From Wolbachia endosymbiont of Ctenocephalides felis wCfeF (GTDB lineage: Bacteria > Pseudomonadota > Alphaproteobacteria > Rickettsiales > Anaplasmataceae), in NCBI GenBank assembly GCA_028571325.1, contig CP116767.1, positions 89,150 to 153,149 of the forward strand: a stretch of 64,000 nt of DNA. The letters are read 5' to 3'. Both the position numbers and the translations under genes were made by a program. The notes under the pieces were generated by a model, which had not been told where the DNA came from, ran no database searches, and was given only the letters and a program-made list of their open reading frames with translations. Numbering within the stretch: the stretch's first letter is position 1; each line of letters begins with the position of its first letter. Positions 3,134-60,745 of this stretch are shown one piece after another.

Positions 3134-3919
3134 ATGGCAACAAGTCTACTACAAGGCAAAAAGGGATTAATAACTGGAATAACAAACAAGAGGTCGATAG
3201 CGTATGGCATAGCAAAAACTCTCTCAGAGCACGGAGCAGAACTTGCAATCACTTATCAAAACGAAATGGTAAGGGAGAGATTGTCATCGGTAGCAGCTGA
3301 GCTAAATGTGGAGTTAGTACTAAATTGTGATGTTGCAAATGAGGAAACCATAGATGAGGTTTTTAAGATAATAGAAAAAAAATGGGGTACTCTTGATTTT
3401 TTGGTACACGCAATCGCATTCTCTGACAAGAATGAACTCGGTGGTAAATATGTTAACACGTCACTGAGCAACTTCCTCAACGCAATGCATATATCATGCT
3501 ATTCTTTTACTGCTCTAGCGCAAAGAGCTGAAAAGATAATGCCAAACGGTGGTAATTTACTCACTTTATCTTACTATGGTGCTGAAAAAGTTATGCCAAA
3601 TTATAATGTTATGGGCCTATGTAAAGCGGCACTCGAAGCAAGTGTAAGATATATAGCATGCGACCTTGGACCGCAAAATATCAGAGTGAATGCCATTTCT
3701 GCTGGTCCAATTAGAACTTTAGCATCTTCTGGAATAAGCAATTTTCACTTCATATCAGAATGGAACAGAAATAATTCTCCACTAAGGCGCAACACTACAA
3801 TAGAAGACGTTGGAAAAGCAGCACTGTATTTGCTAAGTGACTTAAGTAGCGGCACCACTGGGGAAGTTTTACATGTTGATTCAGGGTATAACGTGGTAGG
3901 GATGAAAGCAATTGATTAG
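3134..3919 (+). CDS. fabI: enoyl-[acyl-carrier-protein] reductase (NADH) FabI
   Basis: LQGKKGLITGI..SIAYGIAK Rossmann N-terminus, SYYGAEK..PNYNVMGLCKAALEA (Tyr/Lys catalytic region) and the ISAGPIRT motif. Confidence 0.92.
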   Translation: MATSLLQGKKGLITGITNKRSIAYGIAKTLSEHGAELAITYQNEMVRERLSSVAAELNVELVLNCDVANEETIDEVFKIIEKKWGTLDFLVHAIAFSDKNELGGKYVNTSLSNFLNAMHISCYSFTALAQRAEKIMPNGGNLLTLSYYGAEKVMPNYNVMGLCKAALEASVRYIACDLGPQNIRVNAISAGPIRTLASSGISNFHFISEWNRNNSPLRRNTTIEDVGKAALYLLSDLSSGTTGEVLHVDSGYNVVGMKAID

Positions 3920-3985
3920 TTCAAAGTTGAGTGTGAGAAAAAAGCCTTTCTAAAACTGGTAATATGATTTATAGTTGATAATGCA

Positions 3986-4483
3986 GTGTTTAAATACTTT
4001 ATGCTCAAGAAATTAGCTTGGTATTGGTCCTTTGTAGAATTAATTAAAGGGTTTATTATTACGCTTAGGTATGCGTTTAAACCAAAGGTGACACTTAGGT
4101 ACCCTATGGAGAAGGGACCTCTAAGTCCAAGATTTCGTGGTGAGCATGCGTTGCGTAGATATTCAAACGGCGAAGAACGATGCATAGCTTGTAAACTATG
4201 TGAAGTTATCTGCCCTGCCCAAGCGATAGTTATTGAAGCAGAAGAAAGAGAAGATGGCAGCCGTCGCACTACGCGTTATGATATTGACATGACGAAGTGC
4301 ATATATTGTGGGCTTTGCCAGGAGGCATGTCCGGTCGATGCAATTGTCGAGGGCCCTAATTTTGAGTTCGCAACAGAAACTAGGGAGGAGCTAATGTACA
4401 ACAAAGAAAAGTTATTGCGTAATGGTGACATTTGGGAAGAAGCAATTGCACTCAGATTGAAAAAGGATAGGTCATATCACTAA
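3986..4483 (+). CDS. nuoI: NADH-quinone oxidoreductase subunit I
   Basis: Two 4Fe-4S ferredoxin motifs ([24 protein letters not shown]) and the [11 protein letters not shown] signature. Confidence 0.92.
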
Positions 4484-4530
4484 TGTTAAGAATTTATAAT
4501 ATTAAACCTCTGTTATTCCGGTATTCTTTC

Positions 4531-4600
4531 GTGTCATCCAAGTAGCTCCACTTCCTGTCATGTCAGTGCCTTCTCCTGTCATCCCAGTGCGTGACACACA
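4531..4600. repeat. array of short tgtcatcc(c/a)agt(g/a)c units (degenerate palindromic-element halves)
   Basis: Three units (gtgtcatccaagtagc, cctgtcatgtcagtgcc, cctgtcatcccagtgcg) about 22 nt apart. The same unit arrays recur at 19910-19989 and 60448-60584. Confidence 0.7.
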
Positions 4601-4643
4601 ACTGTACAAACATTGCAATTAGCAGGTAATTTGCGTAACAGAC

Positions 4644-4770
4644 GGTGTCATCCCAGTGCTCCGACACTGGGATCCAGTTTTCCATAAAAATGGTGCATTT
4701 TAACATAACTTTTATGCCCACTAGCCTAATAAAGTTCCTGGATTCCAGCGTCACGTGCTGGAATGACACC
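4644..4770. repeat. ~125-bp palindromic element (RPE/WPE-like)
   Basis: Terminal inverted repeats ggtgtcatcccag / ctggaatgacacc. Internal hairpins cccagtgctccgacactggg and ttccagcgtcacgtgctggaa. A near-identical copy lies at 60585-60708. Confidence 0.8.
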
Positions 4771-4807
4771 ACTTGTTGTAAAAACAAATGTTCGTTCATA
4801 GATTGCA

Positions 4808-5287
4808 ACTAGCTATAAATATTTAAGAAATTTACCAAGCGAGAAAAAAAGCAAAAGAAACCCCGTGGTGGCTAATTATTTACTTTTGTGTCGAAATGTT
4901 GGCGTTTTTTTATCCTAAACGCTTAATAAGTGCGACTTAGCTGCTTTTTAATGCAACTTAACCTTAGCCATAAACGTTTAAGAAACTCACTAAGCAGAAA
5001 AAAAGCAAAAGAAACCCCGAGTAGCTAGTTATTCACTATCTATCTTATGATATTGGCGTTTTTGATGTCTTAAACGACTTATAAGCGCGTTTGAGCTTGT
5101 ATAGGTAAAAAACCAGAAGTTTTAAAAAGACATGCAGTGCACATAGTGCGAAAAATTAAACATGAGACGCCAAATATGCTAAGTTTTTTTCTCATTTAAT
5201 CTGCACAGACTGAAGATAAATAATAGTTTCAGTCTCATTATAAGGGTAACGGCGGGAGTTGTCAAGTAGTTTTTTCGCACATGTCAA
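4808..5287 (+). repeat. composite intergenic repeat R, copy 1 (diverged type a)
   Basis: Shares these blocks with five other copies: ctagctataaat, two ttaagaaatttaccaagc.gaaaaaaagcaaaagaa subunits, cttaaacgacttataagcgcgttt.agcttgtatagg, gtgcacatagtgc..aaacatgagacgccaa, ctgcacaga..gaagataa, ttgtcaagtagtttttt. Confidence 0.85.
5237..5265 (-). promoter_or_regulatory. sigma70-like promoter motif at the end of repeat R1
   Basis: Minus strand reads TTGACA (5265-5260), then 17 nt, then TATAAT (5242-5237), a perfect consensus. Confidence 0.5.
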
Positions 5288-5442
5288 AGCTAGCTTTTTA
5301 TGCAAGAAATCTGATGTTGTTCTGACGCACCTATGTGATATTTGATAACTCCTCTTTTACAAACTTCATGTCACACAATATAGAGATTGTGGAAAGAGTT
5401 TGTTCTTGGTATCATGTTATACCTATAGAATTCTAGCACCGT

Positions 5443-6948
5443 ATGAACTTTAAATCGGTCGTTTTATGTATACTAGATGGCTGGGGAAATGGAATAGAGA
5501 ATAGTGAATATAATGCTATTAGCAATGCAAATCCACCCTGTTGGCAGTATATTAGCTCTAATTACCCAAAATGCAGTTTATCTGCCTGTGGAGCCGATGT
5601 TGGGCTACCAGATGGCCAAATAGGCAATTCAGAAGTTGGCCATATGAATATTGGCAGTGGCAGAGTAGTGATGCAAAGCCTACAGCGCATTAATCAAGAA
5701 ATAGGAACAATAGAAAGCAATGCAAATCTACAAAACTTTATTGGCAATTTAAAAAGTAAGCATGGCGTATGCCATATAATGGGACTAGTGTCAGACGGTG
5801 GTGTTCATTCGCATCAAAAACATATTTCAACTCTAGCAAATAAAATATCGCAACACGGAATTAAAGTTGTGATACATGCATTTTTAGATGGCAGAGATAC
5901 ATCGCCAAATTCGGGGAAAAAATGCATTCAAGAATTTGAAGAGAGTATAAAGGGCAATGACATAAGAATTGCTACTGTCTCTGGACGCTATTACGCTATG
6001 GACCGTGATAACAGGTGGGAAAGAACAATTGAAGCTTACGAAGCTATTGCATTTGCAAAGGCACCTTGTTACGATAGCGTGATGTCGTTGATTGATAATA
6101 ACTACCAAAACAACATAACTGATGAGTTTATCAGACCTGCAGTGATAGGTAACTATCAAGGTATAAAGCCAGAAGATGGAGTGTTACTGGCTAACTTTCG
6201 TGCCGATCGAATGATACAATTGGCGAGTATTTTGCTTGGTAAAACAGACTACATTGAAGTAGCAAAATTCTCTTCAATTTTAAGTATGATGCAATACAAA
6301 GCGGACTTAAAAATTCCCTGTCTTTTTCCTCCTACATCTTTCACTAATACTCTAGGACAGGCAATAGCGGATAATAAATTACAACAGTTGCGTATTGCTG
6401 AAACTGAAAAATACGCTCATGTAACTTTCTTTTTCAATTGCGGCAAAGAAGAACCTTTTCCTGGTGAAGAAAGAATTCTCATTCCCTCACCAAAAGTCAA
6501 AACTTATGATTTGCAGCCTGAAATGTCAGCCTTTGAGCTCACAGAAAAGCTTGTAGAAAAAATTTATTCCCAAGAATTTGCACTGATAGTTGTAAATTAC
6601 GCTAATCCCGATATGGTAGGTCATACGGGTAACATGAAAGCAGCTCAGAAGGCTGTGCTAGCTATAGATAATTGCCTTATGAAAGTGCTCAATGCTGTTA
6701 AAGAAGTAGGTAACACTGTGCTCATTGTTACGGCAGATCACGGTAATGTTGAGTGCATGTTCGATGAAGAAAACAACACACCCCATACAGCACATACTTT
6801 GAATACAGTTCCATTCATCGTATGCTTTGATTCTTATAACAATCTGAAGCTGAGAGATGGAAAGTTATCTGATATCGCTCCCACTATTTTACAGTTACTT
6901 GGAATTAAAAAACCAGACGAAATAACAGGTAGTTCATTGATTGTATAA
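5443..6948 (+). CDS. gpmI: 2,3-bisphosphoglycerate-independent phosphoglycerate mutase
   Basis: LCILDGWG N-terminus, [21 protein letters not shown] and TADHGN motifs; 501 aa. Confidence 0.93.
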
Positions 6949-6970
6949 GCAGCTAGTACGCTTTATGTTA

Positions 6971-7726
6971 TTATAATTCTACTGCCGGGGATTGATTTGC
7001 ATTTGGAAATAAAACACTGTGTAAAGCAGATAGCATATCTATTTGCTGCTCTAAATGACCATGCTCTGCTTCCACATTAGAGTACCGAATATTGTTCTCT
7101 CCAGCATATACAGATAAAGAACCATCGTCTTCAACTGCTTTGTTGTTTTGCAATATTATATTAAAAACTTCCTTCTGTTTTAAAGCCTCAAACCAATCTT
7201 CAACTGTCATGTAGAAAAACTCACCCGTTCCGCTTTCTGGACATACTTCTGGATAAATCTTCAGTACATCACGGGAAAGTGGTGGAGAAAAATAGCTTTT
7301 GAATGAGTAGCTAGGAGAGTTGTAGTTATTATGCAGAGCGATGACATGATCTTGACCAGGAAGCAAAAAACCTAAAATTTCTTCTGCAAAATTTCTAACT
7401 GCCTTCAAAGCACCTTCTGAGAAATTGCCAAATTTTTTTAAACTAGCCTCTGCACCCACGTCGTCAAATATACGATTGGGATCAAACTCATACTTTTCCC
7501 CATTTAAATTAAATTCTACATTACGTGAAGTACCATCGCCATGAATAATGTACAACATTCTACCGCCAAATTGTTGGATTATGCGCTTGCCGGCTTCTTT
7601 TGAAGTTACTTCATTTTGATGCACGTTAATAAAATTAATTCCACTTATGTCATCACTTTCAATAAAAAGTTTAACTGTGGTATCACCTAATGTTAGGTTG
7701 AACTCTTTAGTGTTAATATTTGCCAT
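6971..7726 (-). CDS. hypothetical protein, possible M14/AstE-like zinc hydrolase
   Basis: VHQNE (HxxE), FDPNRIF (compare DLNRNF of M14 peptidases), a later ALHNN histidine and a C-terminal VEAEHG glutamate. The assignment is tentative. Confidence 0.4.
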   Translation of the reverse strand: MANINTKEFNLTLGDTTVKLFIESDDISGINFINVHQNEVTSKEAGKRIIQQFGGRMLYIIHGDGTSRNVEFNLNGEKYEFDPNRIFDDVGAEASLKKFGNFSEGALKAVRNFAEEILGFLLPGQDHVIALHNNYNSPSYSFKSYFSPPLSRDVLKIYPEVCPESGTGEFFYMTVEDWFEALKQKEVFNIILQNNKAVEDDGSLSVYAGENNIRYSNVEAEHGHLEQQIDMLSALHSVLFPNANQSPAVEL

Positions 7727-7789
7727 ACCTCTTACCCTCCCTTAATTGGTAGAACTAACAATCAACTTTATTTGTGCTAGCTATACGCT

Positions 7790-8770
7790 TTAACTTAAAC
7801 TAACTTCTAGATTTTCCGCTGTCAACACTAACGATTCATTAAGAAAACTATCAATATCACCAACACTATTTATATTTTTCGTAATGATGGATTGATCAAT
7901 TCTTTTAACTAGATTAGATAAAACTTTGTTAGGTCCAATTTCAACGAATTTGTTAACGTCACGGTTTACCATATATAAAACCATCTCTCTCCACCTTACT
8001 TTGCTTATAATCTGTTTAGCGAGCAAAGCTCTTATTATTTCTGGGTCACTTTCTTCTTTGGCTGTAACATTTGATACAAAGGGAATTAAAGGTCGAGTTA
8101 TTGTAATGTTTTCCAAAAATTCCAAGAGTTTTTCATCAGCGGGTTTCATAAGAGATGAATGAAAAGGCCCACTAACTTGCAATTTAATTAGTTTCCTCAC
8201 ACTTGAGTTTTTGAATAAATCGGGTAACATTTCAAGAGCTTCCGCAGTGCCGCTTACCACTACCTGTCCACCGCCATTATCGTTTGCAACTTCACAAACC
8301 CCGTCAATTTGGGCTGATTCTAATACATCTTCTACTTCTCTTATCTCTGCTCCAAGCAATGCAACCATTCCGCCTTTACATTTCAGAGAGGCTTCATGCA
8401 TCGCTTCACCACGAACTTTCAGCAATTTGACCGCAGATTCAAGAGTCAATGCTCCTGCAGCACATAGTGCTGTATACTCGCCAACTGAATGCCCACAAAC
8501 ATACTGAACGTTGCAATCAGAGAAAAGAGATCTGCCAAACACATGCTCCATAACACGTAGCGTTGCAATTGACACTGCCATTATAGCTGGCTGAGCATTT
8601 TCTGTGATGGTCAATTCTTCAATAGGGCCGTCAAAAATTAAACTAGATAACTTTCTACTTAGTACACTATCTACTTCATTAAATACCTGTCTTGCAACAG
8701 AGAACTCACTATATAAGCTCCTTCCCATTCCTACAAACTGAGAGCCCTGACCAGGGAAAGCAAAAATCAT
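7790..8770 (-). CDS. fabD: malonyl CoA-ACP transacylase
   Basis: FAFPGQGSQFVGMG N-terminus, GHSVGEY active-site serine motif, and QPAI and SGPFHS motifs. Confidence 0.92.
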   Translation of the reverse strand: MIFAFPGQGSQFVGMGRSLYSEFSVARQVFNEVDSVLSRKLSSLIFDGPIEELTITENAQPAIMAVSIATLRVMEHVFGRSLFSDCNVQYVCGHSVGEYTALCAAGALTLESAVKLLKVRGEAMHEASLKCKGGMVALLGAEIREVEDVLESAQIDGVCEVANDNGGGQVVVSGTAEALEMLPDLFKNSSVRKLIKLQVSGPFHSSLMKPADEKLLEFLENITITRPLIPFVSNVTAKEESDPEIIRALLAKQIISKVRWREMVLYMVNRDVNKFVEIGPNKVLSNLVKRIDQSIITKNINSVGDIDSFLNESLVLTAENLEVSLS

Positions 8771-8898
8771 AATAATTATTATTTATTCTTCATTAAGTAT
8801 ACTACTTTATTTATTTTTTGTCAATATTTTAGAATAATAATTGACTTAGTGAATCGAATCCACTAGAATATTAACTAACTAGAAGTTTGTAGGTAGCA

Positions 8899-10021: not shown

Positions 10022-11005
10022 ATGCCAGGATCATTCACAGGAAGATCAACTACTGATAGTGGAGTAGATAATCAAAGCTTGAAAAAGTCAGCTTCTCAAG
10101 AGACAGTATTTGATAAACCTTGGGATAGTTATGATATTGGTAACCAAGAGAAGACAAACAGATTTTGGCAAAAGACGAAATATCTGATGATGAAGAAGAA
10201 AGTTATAGTGCCTTTCGTAGGTTTTGCTACGATGTGTTGTACTATGGCAATCGCCTTGAGTGTGCAACAAAAAGGATTTATTGGATTCATTGGCAGCGTA
10301 AATCCTGTTACTATATTTGGCGGGGTATTAGCCTCTTGTTTAGTCTTGGGAATTATGTGGGAACTTATACAAGCAGTTCGTACTAAGGAGCATAAGATTA
10401 AAGAAAGAGATACTCAAAAAGTTTTAAACGAGGTACTAAATACACTTCCAGAAGACAAATGCATCAAGTCTTTGATATTAAAATATAGTAACGGTAACCG
10501 CATTTATTTTACGTTTCATTCTCTTCAAGGACAAGAAAAAAATAATGCGAGCATTGTAGAACTTATAGGACAGCCAATCTGTTACAAGAGTAAAGTAAAT
10601 TCATTAGTCAATGATAGACTATGGCTTCCTATTTTAAGCACAGTTCTTATTACTGGAAGCATAACCTTCCCTTTAACACTATATTCAACAGGTGGTTTGA
10701 GTAATATAGTAAATTTATATACAAATCCTACCATTTACTGGCCAGTCATTGCAATTTCATGTACTCTACTGCTTTTCACTGTAGTTTGTGCCCTTCATCA
10801 TTGGAACAAAACTGATTTTAAAGATTATTTGTTATTACATAAACAAGATGCTAGCAGTGAAAAACTTAATGAAACATTTATCGAAGTTGTGAAAGAAAGT
10901 CAGAAGGAGATTAGTTCAAAGTTGTTACAAGCAACGAACAGACAAAGTCTGTTAAACCCTGAAAGAAACTCCACTACTTCTGTTTTTAGCAGTCTTGAAG
11001 TATAA
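10022..11005 (+). CDS. lineage-specific polytopic membrane protein; the last ~25 codons are supplied by the left end of the IS110 element
   Basis: Two pairs of hydrophobic segments. From ~10926 the reading frame runs through sequence duplicated exactly at 32331-32410 as part of the IS. Confidence 0.6.
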   Translation: MPGSFTGRSTTDSGVDNQSLKKSASQETVFDKPWDSYDIGNQEKTNRFWQKTKYLMMKKKVIVPFVGFATMCCTMAIALSVQQKGFIGFIGSVNPVTIFGGVLASCLVLGIMWELIQAVRTKEHKIKERDTQKVLNEVLNTLPEDKCIKSLILKYSNGNRIYFTFHSLQGQEKNNASIVELIGQPICYKSKVNSLVNDRLWLPILSTVLITGSITFPLTLYSTGGLSNIVNLYTNPTIYWPVIAISCTLLLFTVVCALHHWNKTDFKDYLLLHKQDASSEKLNETFIEVVKESQKEISSKLLQATNRQSLLNPERNSTTSVFSSLEV

Positions 11006-19909: not shown

Positions 19910-19989
19910 GGTGTCATTTCAGCACCCTTCCTCCTGTCATTCCAGTACTCCTTTTCTTGTCATCCAAGTAGCTGGCACTGGAATCCAAA
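19910..19989. repeat. array of short tgtcat(t/c)c(c/a)ag units
   Basis: ggtgtcatttcagcac, cctgtcattccagtac, cttgtcatccaagtagctggcactggaatcc. Confidence 0.7.
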
Positions 19990-19996
19990 ATACTAC

Positions 19997-20457
19997 TCTA
20001 GCTATAAATATTAAGAAATTTACCAAGCGAGAAAAAAAGGCAAAAGAAGCCCTGGTCGGTAGCTAATTATTTATATGTACCTCAAATATCGGCATTTTTA
20101 TTCTCAGCGCTACGATTCAGCTACTTTTAAATGCAAATAACCAAAACTACAAACGTTAAGAATTTTACTGAGCGGAAAAAAAGGCAAAAAAACTCTAAGG
20201 CAGCTAGTATTCAAATTCTCCCTTGTCTATTTGACGTTCTATACTGTCTTAAACGACTTATAAGCGCGTTTCAGCTTGTATAGGCAAAAACCAGAAGTTT
20301 TAAAAAGACGTAAGGTGCACATAGTGCAAAAATTTAAACATGAGACGCCAAATACCCTAAGTTTTTTGTCATTAACCTGCACAGATTGCGAAGATAAACA
20401 AATAGCTTCAGTCTTATAATAACAGGGTTGGCGAAGGTTGTCAAGTAGTTTTTTTGT
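19997..20457 (+). repeat. composite repeat R, copy 2 (type a)
   Basis: Collinear with R4 (42126-42580). The two are identical by eye over roughly 250 bp, from ...aggcagctagtattcaaattc to ...aaacaaatagcttca. Confidence 0.88.
20416..20444 (-). promoter_or_regulatory. promoter motif at the end of R2, pointing toward the 1359-aa gene
   Basis: Minus strand: TTGACA (20444-20439), then 17 nt, then TATTAT (20421-20416). Confidence 0.45.
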
Positions 20458-20541
20458 TTCTGTCAGCTACCTAGATAACAGCTAGGATTGTATAATAGTT
20501 GTATTGGAATCCAGTTTTTCGTATAATTTTATTAAAAAAGT

Positions 20542-41933: not shown

Positions 41934-42125
41934 ATTTCATTTCTCAGTTATATTGAACAGTAATACAGCTTTTATCCGTTTTAATCAAACTAAAATTTTC
42001 ATATGTAGTTAAATAAATTATACAATAGACTTGTTGCATAACCTAAACTAAGCAGAAAAAGGCAATTTACTGTCTGCTACTACCTGCGGATCTCATCCGC
42101 TGACACGTAGCGGGATGATGGTGGC

Positions 42126-42580
42126 TACAAAGGTTTAAGAAATTTACCAAGTGGGGAAAAAAGCAAAAGAAACCCCGGTCGGTGGCTAATTATTTATATG
42201 TACCTCAAATATCGGCGTTTTTATTCTCAGCGCTACGATTCAGCTATTTTTAAATGCAAATAGCCTAAACTGCAAACGTTAAGAAATTTACCAGGCAGGA
42301 AAAAAAGGCAAAAAAACTCTGAGGCAGCTAGTATTCAAATTCTCCCTTGTCTATTTGACGTTCTATACTGTCTTAAACGACTTATAAGCGCGTTTCAGCT
42401 TGTATAGGCAAAAACCAGAAGTTTTAAAAAGACGTAAGGTGCACATAGTGCAAAAATTTAAACATGAGACGCCAAATACCCTAAGTTTTTTGTCATTAAC
42501 CTGCACAGATTGCGAAGATAAACAAATAGCTTCAATACTATAATAAAAGGATCGGTAGAGTTTGTCAAGTAGTTTTTTGT
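42126..42580 (+). repeat. composite repeat R, copy 4 (type a)
   Basis: See R2; same block order and near-identical core. Confidence 0.88.
42540..42568 (-). promoter_or_regulatory. promoter motif at the end of R4, pointing toward tRNA-Lys/nuoF
   Basis: Minus strand: TTGACA (42568-42563), then 17 nt, then TATTAT (42545-42540). Confidence 0.45.
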
Positions 42581-42741
42581 TTCTAGCGAAACTCAACACT
42601 AGCTTGTAAATGGTTGTTCTTGCTTTCGCTGTTTTGCTCTTGAAAAGATTATGAATAGGTTCTTAGGGTTATTGAAAGTAATAAACTCCTTTATTTAAGA
42701 CCGAAGTTTTGCTATTCTCGCATTTTAATAATTTAAAATTA

Positions 42742-45662: not shown

Positions 45663-45751
45663 AAAAATAGATAGATGGTATGAGTAGGTATTGTTTGGTT
45701 GAGAAAATGAAAAGATAATAACTTTTCAGAGTGAATAGGGGCAACAAAAAC

Positions 45752-46205
45752 AAAAAAAACTACTTGACAACCTTCGTTAGTTCCATTATCATGATATTGG
45801 AGGTATTCAGTTATCTTCATCTGTGCAGATTAAATGACAGGATTATAACGTAGTTGGCGTCTTATGTTTAATTTTTTGCACTATGTGCACCTTATGTCTT
45901 TATTAATTTCACCTAGACTTCTAGGTTTTTCCCTATACAAGCTGAAACGCGCTTATAAGTCGTTTAAGACAGTATAGTACGCCAATTTGCAGGATTAGAG
46001 AGTGAGCAACTTCTACCACGGGATTCTTTTGTCTTTTTTTCTGCTTAGTAAGTTTCTTAGCGCTTAAGCTAAGGGTCTGTTGCAGTTTAAAAGTCGCTAA
46101 ATTGCAGCGTTTAGGACTTAAAAAAACGCCAATACTGAAAATAAATACCGAACGGGGCCTCTTTTGCTTTTTTTCTCGCTTGGTAAATTTTTTAATATAA
46201 TTGCA
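45752..46205 (-). repeat. composite repeat R, copy 5 (type b), inverted orientation
   Basis: Reverse complement is collinear with R6 and R3 across all blocks. Confidence 0.88.
45764..45792 (+). promoter_or_regulatory. promoter motif at the end of R5
   Basis: Plus strand: TTGACA (45764-45769), then 17 nt, then TATCAT (45787-45792). Confidence 0.45.
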
Positions 46206-46310
46206 ATACAAGATGAGGCTTGGGTTCTTAGGCCAATACATCCGAACAAAAAGATTGAATATTTCTTCAGAATTGTGTATAATTCTTAATACTTTTTAAG
46301 TGAATCTCTC

Positions 46311-47214
46311 ATGGCTTTATCAAAATTTCTCAATCCAAAACTGGACTTAACATTCAAAAGAATATTTGGTAACGAGGGAAATAAGAATATCCTTATTCAC
46401 TTTCTTAATGATATTTTAGGATTTACTGGCTATACAAGAAGTTGAGTTTCTCAGCACCATTATGGATCCTGAAATTGCCTCCGATAAGCAAAGTATTGTT
46501 GATGTTCTCTGCAAAGACTCTATTGGAAATAGATTTGTCATCGAAATGCAGCTCGCTCGCGATAAAGGCTTCGAAAAACGCGCTCAGCTATACGCAGCTA
46601 AAGCTTATTCAAGGCAGGTTGGGAAAGGTGGCGAGTACATCGATTTAAAGACAGTATTCTTTATTGCCATCTCTAATAATATCCTGTTTCCTGAGGAAGT
46701 TAAGTATATTTCTACTCATAATATACGAGAGGTAAAAACTAATGGACATTACCTGAAAGGTTTTCAATTTGTGTTCATTGAATTACCTAAATTCAAAAAA
46801 GACAAAGTGGAACAGTTGGAAAGTACAGTAGAGCGCTGGTGCTTTTTTTTCAAACATGCAGAAGATACTACAGATAAAGACCTAAAAGACATAGCAGAAA
46901 AATCTCCGATAATAAATCTAGCGTATGATGAGTTAAACAAGGAACGCTGGAGTGAGAAAGATCTGGTGGCATACGAAGAAAGGTTAATGGATCTACGGAA
47001 AGAAGAGGCCATCATTGCGTACAGACTTGATACTGCTAAAGAAGAAGGTAGAAAAAAAGGCATTCAAATCGGCGAAGAAAGAGGAGAAAAACACGCTAAA
47101 ATAGCTGTGGCAAAAAACCTACTTAAAGCTGGCGTATCTGTTGACTTGATAGCTGAATCTACTGGTCTTCCTAGAGCTGAAATTGTGCAACTCAAAGAGG
47201 AAGTCACGAGTTAA
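46311..47214 (+). pseudogene. Rpn-family recombination-promoting nuclease / PD-(D/E)XK putative transposase, frameshifted
   Basis: MALSKFLNPKLDLTFKRIFGNEGNKNILIHFLNDILGFTG (frame 3, stop at 46443-46445) continues as AIQEVEFLSTIMDPEIASDKQSIVDVLCKD..RFVIEMQ in frame 1 from ~46429. One frameshift lies near 46427. Confidence 0.75.
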
Positions 47215-47240
47215 CCGCTTAGCTACCAATATATTTTGAA

Positions 47241-47381
47241 GTAAGCCACCCACGGGGCTTCTCTTGCTTTTTTCTCATTTGATAAATTTCTTAAATATCT
47301 ATTACTAAAGTAGTATCTTGGATCCCAGATACAAGAGTTACGCGCTGGGATGACAAGGAGAAGGGCTACTTAGATGGCACC
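47241..47381. repeat. fragment of an R subunit (inverted) plus a degenerate palindromic element
   Basis: cacggggcttctcttgcttttttctcatttgataaatttcttaaatat is the reverse of the ttaagaaattta...gcaa.agaagccccg subunit. It is followed by ggatcccagat...gcgctgggatgacaagg. Confidence 0.6.
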
Positions 47382-60584: not shown

Positions 60585-60708
60585 TGTCATCCCAGTGCTC
60601 GACACTGGGATCCAGTTTTCCATAAAACTATGTATTTTAACATAACTTTTATACTCACTAAACCTAATAAAATTCCTAGATTCCAGCGTCACACGCTGGA
60701 ATGATAAC
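60585..60708. repeat. ~125-bp palindromic element, second copy
   Basis: Collinear with 4644-4770, including the central ttttccataaaa..t.tattttaacataactttta segment. Confidence 0.8.
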
Positions 60709-60745
60709 ATTTGTTGTAAAAACAAATGTTCGTTCATGAATTGCG

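Follow-up and report, generated by a model that had tools for sequence, protein, structure and literature searches.

A recombining intergenic repeat family of Wolbachia with a predicted sigma-70 promoter at its 5' edge

What keeps a consensus promoter motif intact at the edge of a non-coding repeat whose adjoining sequence differs from copy to copy? The question is raised by a locus at positions 45752 to 46205 of a 64,000-nucleotide stretch, hereafter the window, from the genome of the Wolbachia endosymbiont of Ctenocephalides felis, wCfeF (contig CP116767.1, positions 89,150 to 153,149). The locus is one copy, R5, of an intergenic repeat family that we call R and that a first-pass annotation had described as having six copies. 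A repeat finder and an nhmmer profile search, both run over the window, agreed on six R copies and one solo 3' module, with each of the six falling within ~15 nt of the coordinates originally given for it. Together the copies make up ~4% of the window, and all of them are intergenic. The count of six holds for the window, but it missed the solo 3' module and far more members in other genomes: when copies were counted across related genomes, as the annotation had proposed, the profile search gave more than 140 of them in at least nine genomes or metagenome-assembled genomes (MAGs), plus termite-gut metagenome contigs. On balance, we favor the view that R is a self-transcribed, non-coding, recombining mosaic repeat whose promoter would be kept by selection, with effects on neighboring genes and on genome arrangement arising as by-products.

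Conservation of the promoter motif

The window contains exactly six instances of TTGACA-N17-TATNAY, one per R copy. The chance expectation is 0.18, and none of 100 dinucleotide-preserving shuffles reached six. The motif stands at one end of every copy, with -10 hexamers TATAAT, TATTAT, TATCAC, TATTAT, TATCAT, and TATCAT in R1 through R6, exactly as first reported. We then drew promoter statistics from 117 R copies with an intact 5' end, taken from many genomes. The -35 hexamer TTGACA is exact in 111 of these copies (95%), as it is in all six window copies, and the spacer is 17 nt long in 116 (99%), yet the spacers comprise 87 distinct sequences. Within the -10 hexamer, T1 is retained in 98% of copies, A2 in 96%, T3 in 84%, A5 in 96%, and T6 in 91%, and position 4 is free (C, 66%; T, 18%; A, 16%). 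This position-specific pattern matches what is known of the information content of sigma-70 -10 elements. The first-pass annotation had taken the invariant -35 and the fixed spacing as signs of selection on promoter function, an argument that is stronger on these ~117 copies.

In an 83-copy alignment, column conservation stood at 97 to 99% in the -35 block and the A-tract that precedes it and at 89% in the -10, but at 71% in the spacer and 67% in the discriminator, so that both hexamers are better conserved than the positions that flank them, an outcome on which the earlier claim had been made to depend. Indels are abundant across the rest of R, whereas the spacer is essentially free of them. 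Upstream of TTGACA, only the 10 to 11 nt AAAAAA(A)CTAC are conserved at ≥90%, and beyond them conservation drops to background. The A-tract lies where the proximal UP-element subsite would lie in sigma-70 promoters. Because conservation starts abruptly at this tract, 10 to 11 nt upstream of the -35, the repeat unit appears to begin where the promoter begins. The 13-plus-6-base promoter pattern also matched unrelated strong promoters in phage and in Firmicutes-like metagenome contigs, which argues that the 5' block of R is generic strong-promoter sequence. Sigma-70 promoters are recognized by a -35 near TTGACA, a spacer of 17 ± 1 bp, and a -10 near TATAAT, all of which R has, and its predicted promoter is a near-perfect consensus (TTGACA, 17 nt, TATcAT). 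The pattern of conservation supports the prediction, being that expected of a working sigma-70 promoter. Homogenization alone cannot explain it, since a spacer polymorphic at 15 positions lies between two invariant hexamers.

The promoter sits at the 5' extremity of R and is aimed into the element, so that any transcript must cross 300 to 440 nt of repeat before it reaches a neighboring gene. R itself is a dispersed, non-coding repeat of 300 to 460 bp, in which an A-tract, the promoter, and a body of ~250 nt are followed by one 3' module in the short form (~300 nt from the -35) or by two in the long form (~440 nt from the -35). R5 is a long form on the plus strand at 45743 to 46205 (nhmmer profile positions 5 to 477; E = 1e-137). 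Its 5' block, AAAAAAAACTAC-TTGACA (45752 to 45769), whose positions are ≥90% conserved among the 117 copies, consists of the A-tract at the UP-element position and the -35 hexamer (45764 to 45769). The 17-nt spacer (45770 to 45786), hypervariable in sequence and fixed in length, and the -10 hexamer TATCAT (45787 to 45792) come next, giving a consensus match of 11/12. From the usual spacing of ~7 nt, transcription is predicted to start at ~45799, where the body begins (45799 to 45972); the conservation profile and recurrent predicted helices mark out within it a 5' hairpin, a block TTGGCGTCTTATGTTTAATTTTTTGCACTATGTGCAC, and a core CAAGCTGAAACGCGCTTATAAGTCGTTTAAGACAG. The first 3' module, ACGCCAAT ... 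CGGGATTCTTTTGTCTTTTTTTCTGCTTAGTAAGTTTCTTA (45973 to 46063), is U-rich on the transcribed strand, and short forms end after it. The second (46119 to 46197), a paralogue of the first, is what makes a copy a long form.

Throughout the family, the promoter strand of the 3' modules is U-rich, with GGTAAATTTCTTAA at the end. Among 83 unique copies, 42 were long and 41 short, a few carried three or four modules, and module number could differ between orthologous copies. Some blocks of the body are 95 to 99% conserved in the 83-copy alignment and adjoin blocks that are variable. The core GCGCTTATAAGTCGTTTAAGAC looks nearly invariant in part because loci were fetched with that string, and its conservation is inflated accordingly. 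There is also a second body family; its similarity to the first is only ~60%, but it shares the promoter block and the 3' module with it. In a promoter-seeded sample of metagenome copies, 21 of 23 belonged to family 1 (one of them truncated) and two to family 2, and no third body type appeared among the 23. Judged from these alignments, the conserved entity is a frame of promoter, interior, and U-rich tail, shaped like a small self-contained transcription unit.

Recombination between copies and their neighborhood

R2 and R4 share an unbroken identity of 213 nt that starts approximately at the predicted transcription start. In the preceding 30 nt, which cover the spacer and discriminator, they differ at ~11 positions, and their -35 blocks are identical. 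This run of identity and its sharp end had been noticed in the first-pass annotation, which put its length at ~250 nt. The annotation also singled out the spacer and the sequence just downstream as the most diverged part of the element; the divergence is real but is due mainly to recombination between copies rather than to simple decay. Orthologous copies in closely related genomes have flanks that are 97 to 99% identical up to AAAAAACTACTTGACAA (TTGACAA), after which spacer and body differ, and the orthologue of R5 at locus L014 carries a family-2 body. Such swapped interiors within identical flanks point to frequent recombination between copies. Over all pairs of copies, spacer distance was poorly correlated with body distance (r = 0.14 to 0.16), whereas the two halves of the body were correlated at r = 0.69, and 63 pairs with a body difference of ≤3% still differed at 36% of spacer positions. 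We infer a mosaic family that recombination between its copies keeps changing.

The consequences may extend to gene order. At locus L041, in a Paracimex-type Wolbachia MAG (C61_2, positions 3218 to 8000), a single R copy joins the right flanks of R5 and R1, as seen by comparison with window positions 45798 to 47048 and 5066 to 8772. This arrangement implies that, in one lineage, the inverted copies R1 and R5 recombined and ~40 kb was inverted.

The other five copies in the window lie on the minus strand and were all located with nhmmer. R1 (4797 to 5286; promoter TTGACA-17-TATAAT at 5237 to 5265), R2 (19992 to 20466; promoter 20416 to 20444), R4 (42112 to 42589; promoter 42540 to 42568), and R6 (60735 to 61208; promoter 61162 to 61190) are long forms. 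R3 consists of a 5' part at 33955 to 34099 (promoter 34054 to 34082) and a 3' part at 32010 to 32330 (nhmmer match 32010 to 32319; profile positions 164 to 480). The two parts are split, as had been stated, by an insertion sequence (IS), a 1627-bp element of the IS110 family on the plus strand at 32331 to 33957 (Pfam DEDD_Tnp_IS110 and Transposase_20) that is not part of R. A second 1627-bp copy of this IS, 99.8% identical, lies at 10926 to 12552, and each copy encodes a 448-amino-acid (aa) DEDD transposase. The two copies are inserted in unrelated targets, indicating that the IS is not specific for R, and we rejected IS110 targeting of R on this ground. R does resemble MITEs, miniature inverted-repeat transposable elements, in being small, non-coding, multicopy, and intergenic. 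MITEs share their ends with an autonomous IS; the only IS in the window is that of the IS110 family, and it has no ends in common with R. The sequences bordering the 5' edge of R differ between copies.

In the window, three copies face a co-oriented neighbor and three a convergent one, a count that the first-pass annotation had right. Over the copies surveyed, 50 had a co-oriented open reading frame (ORF) next downstream and 59 a convergent one (P = 0.44), while on the upstream side 64 ORFs were tandem and 51 divergent. The median distance from R to a co-oriented downstream ORF was 241 nt. Given that there is no orientation bias downstream, the copies do not appear to be placed to drive neighboring genes, and the promoter would most likely serve the element's own transcript rather than those of its neighbors. 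Downstream of R4 and co-oriented with it are tRNA-Lys and nuoF. R2 has, 244 nt downstream and likewise co-oriented, a 1359-aa ORF on the minus strand (15669 to 19748) in which we found no Pfam domain at E ≤ 1e-5. The solo 3' module (47240 to 47316, plus strand; nhmmer profile positions 402 to 480) directly follows the stop codon of a co-oriented pseudogene, a frameshifted Rpn (PDDEXK_2) "transposase" gene at 46311 to 47316. This pseudogene has a promoter-like sequence of its own, TTGAAT-17-TATAAT at 46255 to 46283, and the pairing of an Rpn-type gene with a solo 3' module recurs at loci L041 and L057. Only three distinct places among the sampled loci have an Rpn gene next to R, namely one set of orthologous loci (the window, L083, and L041), L080, where the arrangement is convergent, and L057, where the gene lies beside a solo 3' module. 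With so few adjacencies, we rejected Rpn/PDDEXK_2 as a transposase of R.

The predicted transcript and rival explanations

If R is a self-transcribed repeat, as we favor, its promoter would fire into the element and yield an RNA of ~260 nt from short forms or ~400 nt from long ones, and the U-rich 3' modules would end this transcript. Conservation of the promoter would then reflect selection for transcribing the element itself, whether through some use of the RNA or because copies that are not transcribed fail to persist or spread. Where termination is poor, read-through into co-oriented genes or antisense transcription into convergent ones would be likely. The copies also serve as substrates in homologous recombination, by which the genome is rearranged.

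Several observations weigh against this reading. The transcript, its start, and its 3' end are all predictions from sequence. The 3' modules were not called by a terminator scan, and their folds are weak and inconsistent; each has a U-rich run but a stem of only 3 to 5 bp, and by this structure they are not canonical intrinsic terminators. RNAalifold, applied to the 83-copy MAFFT alignment, returned only 12 consensus pairs at -3.3 kcal/mol. Within helices, G-U combinations occupied 265 cells versus 196 for A-C but the same number of column pairs (35 versus 35), and with no clear excess of G-U over A-C, a conserved RNA fold is not established. As for spread, we found internal inverted repeats in R but no terminal ones, the two ends being unlike on inspection; nor did the sampled loci include a clean empty site at which a target-site duplication could be read (two candidates, L054 at nuoF and L051 at R6, proved to be rearrangements). 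Finally, concerted evolution could contribute to the uniformity of the hexamers.

Structure was also assessed with a model of 47 pairs, manually assembled from helices that recur in single-sequence folds. In this model, 89.7% of cells were paired versus 87.9% in shuffles (0 of 500 as high), covariation was 0.121 versus 0.103 (0 of 500 as high), and 15 pairs showed double changes versus 10.3 expected (6 of 500). The model stood above all 500 shuffles on three of five measures, subject to the warning that applies to related sequences, and we regard the support for a conserved structure in a putative R RNA as weak to moderate. Searching the whole window against Rfam 15 in gathering mode gave no match to R and only tRNA-Lys, and in E-value mode the best match to R5 (E = 0.69) was far below its threshold. 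The known Wolbachia small RNAs ncrwmel01 and ncrwmel02 were rejected as R because they are single-copy loci. Literature searches, which included R sequence strings, turned up no description of the element. With no Rfam match, no terminal inverted repeats, and no published description found, the initial judgment that R is not any known IS, intron, or RNA gene stands. A Cappable-seq study of transcription start sites in Wolbachia drops multi-mapping reads (PMC12558409), a step that makes it silent on repeats and would hide the R family.

Two other functions could be proposed for so conserved a promoter, and we consider each of them unlikely. R might be a mobile promoter or regulatory cassette that supplies a downstream gene with a strong promoter and a long leader, in which case selection would act on expression of the neighbor. 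Three window copies do precede co-oriented features (the 1359-aa ORF, tRNA-Lys/nuoF, and the Rpn gene), co-oriented ORFs lie at a median of just 241 nt, and the unconvincing 3' modules make read-through plausible. Yet co-oriented downstream genes are not enriched (50 versus 59), and a promoter donor would need neither a conserved body of 250 to 400 nt, nor 3' modules, nor a second body family. Alternatively, the copies could be redundant small-RNA genes encoding a trans-acting regulatory or sponge RNA that benefits the host. That idea, which we hold to be about equally doubtful, draws on the strongly conserved blocks that stand beside variable ones in the body, on covariation above that of shuffled controls, and on the placement of promoter and U-rich tail on one strand. 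It has to contend with weakly conserved structure, an interior that is freely swapped, the lack of a second module in about half of the copies, and a 22-nt core whose conservation is inflated by the way in which loci were fetched. A search of the window for antisense targets of the predicted RNA yielded chance 12- to 15-mers only, and ≥100 copies would be unusual for a host regulatory RNA.

Less probable than either, in our estimate, is that the AAAAAACTACTTGACAA block is a DNA site, whether an element end or a recombination site for a recombinase or nuclease, and resembles a promoter only secondarily. The breakpoints between orthologues fall at this block, which is the outermost conserved sequence of R; the genome carries IS110 and Rpn-type (PDDEXK_2) genes; and R-like sequence lies beside a serine recombinase gene at the end of the record of phage WOVitA1. 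But a breakpoint at the outermost identical block is trivially expected from homologous recombination, the Rpn genes adjoin R at few places and the IS110 copies sit in unrelated targets, as described above, and a DNA site would leave a -10 at exactly 17 nt with a sigma-70 position profile unexplained. R could also be, though we think it improbable, a bacterial counterpart of short interspersed nuclear elements (SINEs), an RNA cassette in which a fixed frame of promoter and 3' module would occupy ≥100 loci and the transcribed interior would be copied between loci via its own transcript, with complementary DNA made, for example, by group II intron reverse transcriptases, which are abundant in Wolbachia. 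Copying of this kind would explain why the R2/R4 identity begins near the transcription start, why the spacer assorts independently of the body (r = 0.14), and why the R5 orthologue has a different body behind a similar promoter; a simpler account of these data is ordinary homologous gene conversion with an edge effect. Least credible of all is a small-protein or type I toxin locus in which the promoter would express a short hydrophobic peptide. R5 does hold a 38-codon ORF (MFNFLHYVHLMSLLISPRLLGFSLYKLKRAYKSFKTV), but a subfamily indel shortens it to 13 codons in R1, R2, and R4, so that the alignments already contradict the idea. Indels differ between subfamilies and no ORF is conserved across the copies; there is no Shine-Dalgarno sequence, and we saw no codon pattern in the variation of the core.

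Distribution, flanking repeats, and known systems

Using the 22-nt core of R, we fetched at least 120 loci from a genome collection, and nhmmer found at least 173 matches in the fetched loci and window combined. Among the matches listed, all core loci were in Wolbachia (wTis, wPaur, wMoz, a Psylliodes strain, and Paracimex-type MAGs) or in termite-gut MAGs labeled "Rickettsiales bacterium" that contain Wolbachia-like sequence. The window flanks are 96 to 97% identical to those termite-gut MAGs and to wTis. A promoter-seeded scan of metagenomes supplied the 23 further copies mentioned above, on Wolbachia-like contigs and mostly at contig ends; of the at least 120 loci returned by the promoter pattern, 100 had no family-1 match and resembled unrelated strong promoters. 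A scan of viral contigs with a degenerate promoter pattern was set aside: the pattern was badly chosen and matched nothing but unrelated generic promoters. Many contigs have their start or end within R, which suggests that short-read Wolbachia assemblies break at R copies. The exact iPGM protein of the window was found only on contigs from Logan assemblies of one sequencing run (SRR35761224), which break at R1; one of them (L243, 5686 bp) ends 197 nt upstream of the iPGM gene, at R1.

We found no match to R in a plasmid collection and only two partial matches in a phage collection, both in supergroup A WO records. One, in the wRi record MN180249.1 (L121:1495-1590), is a truncated R between ruvA and the 3' end of rnhB that retains the A-tract, TTGACA-17-TATCAT, the 5' hairpin, and ~40 nt more; hence supergroup F-like genomes are not the only ones to hold the family, or at any rate its promoter end. 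The other is the R-like sequence at the very end of the WOVitA1 record (HQ906662.1 positions 1 to 155; L122:1150-1304), which runs from the -10 region to the middle of the body, without the -35, and overlaps the 3' end of the serine recombinase gene. Its position raises the question of whether the boundary or attachment site of this prophage lies inside an R copy.

The intergenic DNA around R is a mosaic of several repeat types. Clusters of short palindromes resembling repetitive extragenic palindromes (REPs) (GGATCCCAGT..ACTGGGATGACA, often in tandem) are common 3' of R at many loci, and in the window they occupy 19880 to 19990 and 47296 to 47380. These flanking hairpins are probably the CGTC-4 REPs described for Wolbachia (PMC3733652) or the hairpins of its variable-number tandem repeats (VNTRs). 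VNTR-141 and VNTR-105 are built of 23-bp hairpin units (PMC3287509), and we rejected them as R itself for that reason, though similar hairpins flank it. A second recurrent module (TATTTATAGCTAGTTGCAATTCATGAACGAACATTTGTTTTTACAACAAATG..TCATTCCAGCG.GTGACGCTGGAATC..) often lies just 3' of R, at 4577 to 4800 and 60585 to 60735 in the window and at L031, L056, L089, L052, and other loci. Several different sequences also recur directly 5' of R at non-orthologous sites (..TCTTGCATA..TTTTGGCAGCGCGTTGGATGAAAC and ..CTCGCATATCAAACTAGTTTTAGCATATGCG). R may tend to adjoin other repeat modules, or it may belong to larger composite units.

R is abundant and apparently unannotated, and it bears on both the transcriptomics and the genome stability of Wolbachia. 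These genomes are small, and strong consensus promoters appear to be uncommon in them; a study of Wolbachia transcription start sites found the -35 motif TTGACA to be less frequent than the -10 box TATAAT. Against this background, R places a near-perfect predicted promoter at dozens of intergenic sites, possibly ≥100. It could constitute a large part of the transcriptome that has gone uncounted because repeat-derived reads are usually discarded, and it could generate antisense and read-through transcription, different from one strain to another. R is also a substrate in the scrambling of Wolbachia gene order by rearrangement, of which we saw one case, an inversion. Should the RNA prove functional, few RNA gene families would be as abundant in this endosymbiont, which is used in the control of mosquito-borne disease.

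The closest description that we encountered within Wolbachia is that of "repeat family 8" of wMel, an unclassified repeat of >200 bp with 45 copies and no similarity to known mobile elements, which is described as flanked by inverted repeats and for which no promoter was reported (Wu et al. 2004; PMC368164). Compared by description only, it may be the R family or a relative in supergroup A, with the difference that R is not flanked by inverted repeats. Further afield, the Correia elements of Neisseria (CREE/NEMIS) carry functional sigma-70 promoters, are transcribed, and alter the expression of neighboring genes. R is like them in being an abundant small non-coding intergenic repeat with sigma-70 promoter elements, but Correia elements are 100 to 155 bp long, with terminal inverted repeats, a TA target duplication, and promoters that point outward, whereas R is 300 to 460 bp long, lacks terminal inverted repeats, and has one complete promoter at its 5' edge that would fire inward. 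In Coxiella burnetii, another obligate intracellular bacterium, dispersed non-autonomous repeats (QMITE1 and QMITE2) give rise to small RNAs, the CbsR RNAs. QMITEs are inverted-repeat elements of which only some copies are transcribed, from surrounding promoters; the promoter of R, by contrast, lies within the repeat unit and is retained in ~95% of copies.

Interchangeable blocks, variable module number, and short palindromes nearby are traits that R shares with bacterial interspersed mosaic elements (BIMEs)/REPs and with the pneumococcal BOX elements. Those are made of palindromic units of 20 to 60 bp and are not known to carry a promoter of their own, whereas the body of R is long and non-palindromic and is preceded by a consensus promoter. 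"Mobile promoters" are identical promoter segments found upstream of unrelated genes, and R is similar in that one promoter sequence has spread to many unrelated loci in a genome. What defines mobile promoters is their location upstream of genes, whereas R shows no orientation preference and brings a body and a tail with it. R thus sets itself apart from its nearest kinds by its exchangeable body variants, by an inward promoter as its first block, and by the lack of any positional relation to genes.

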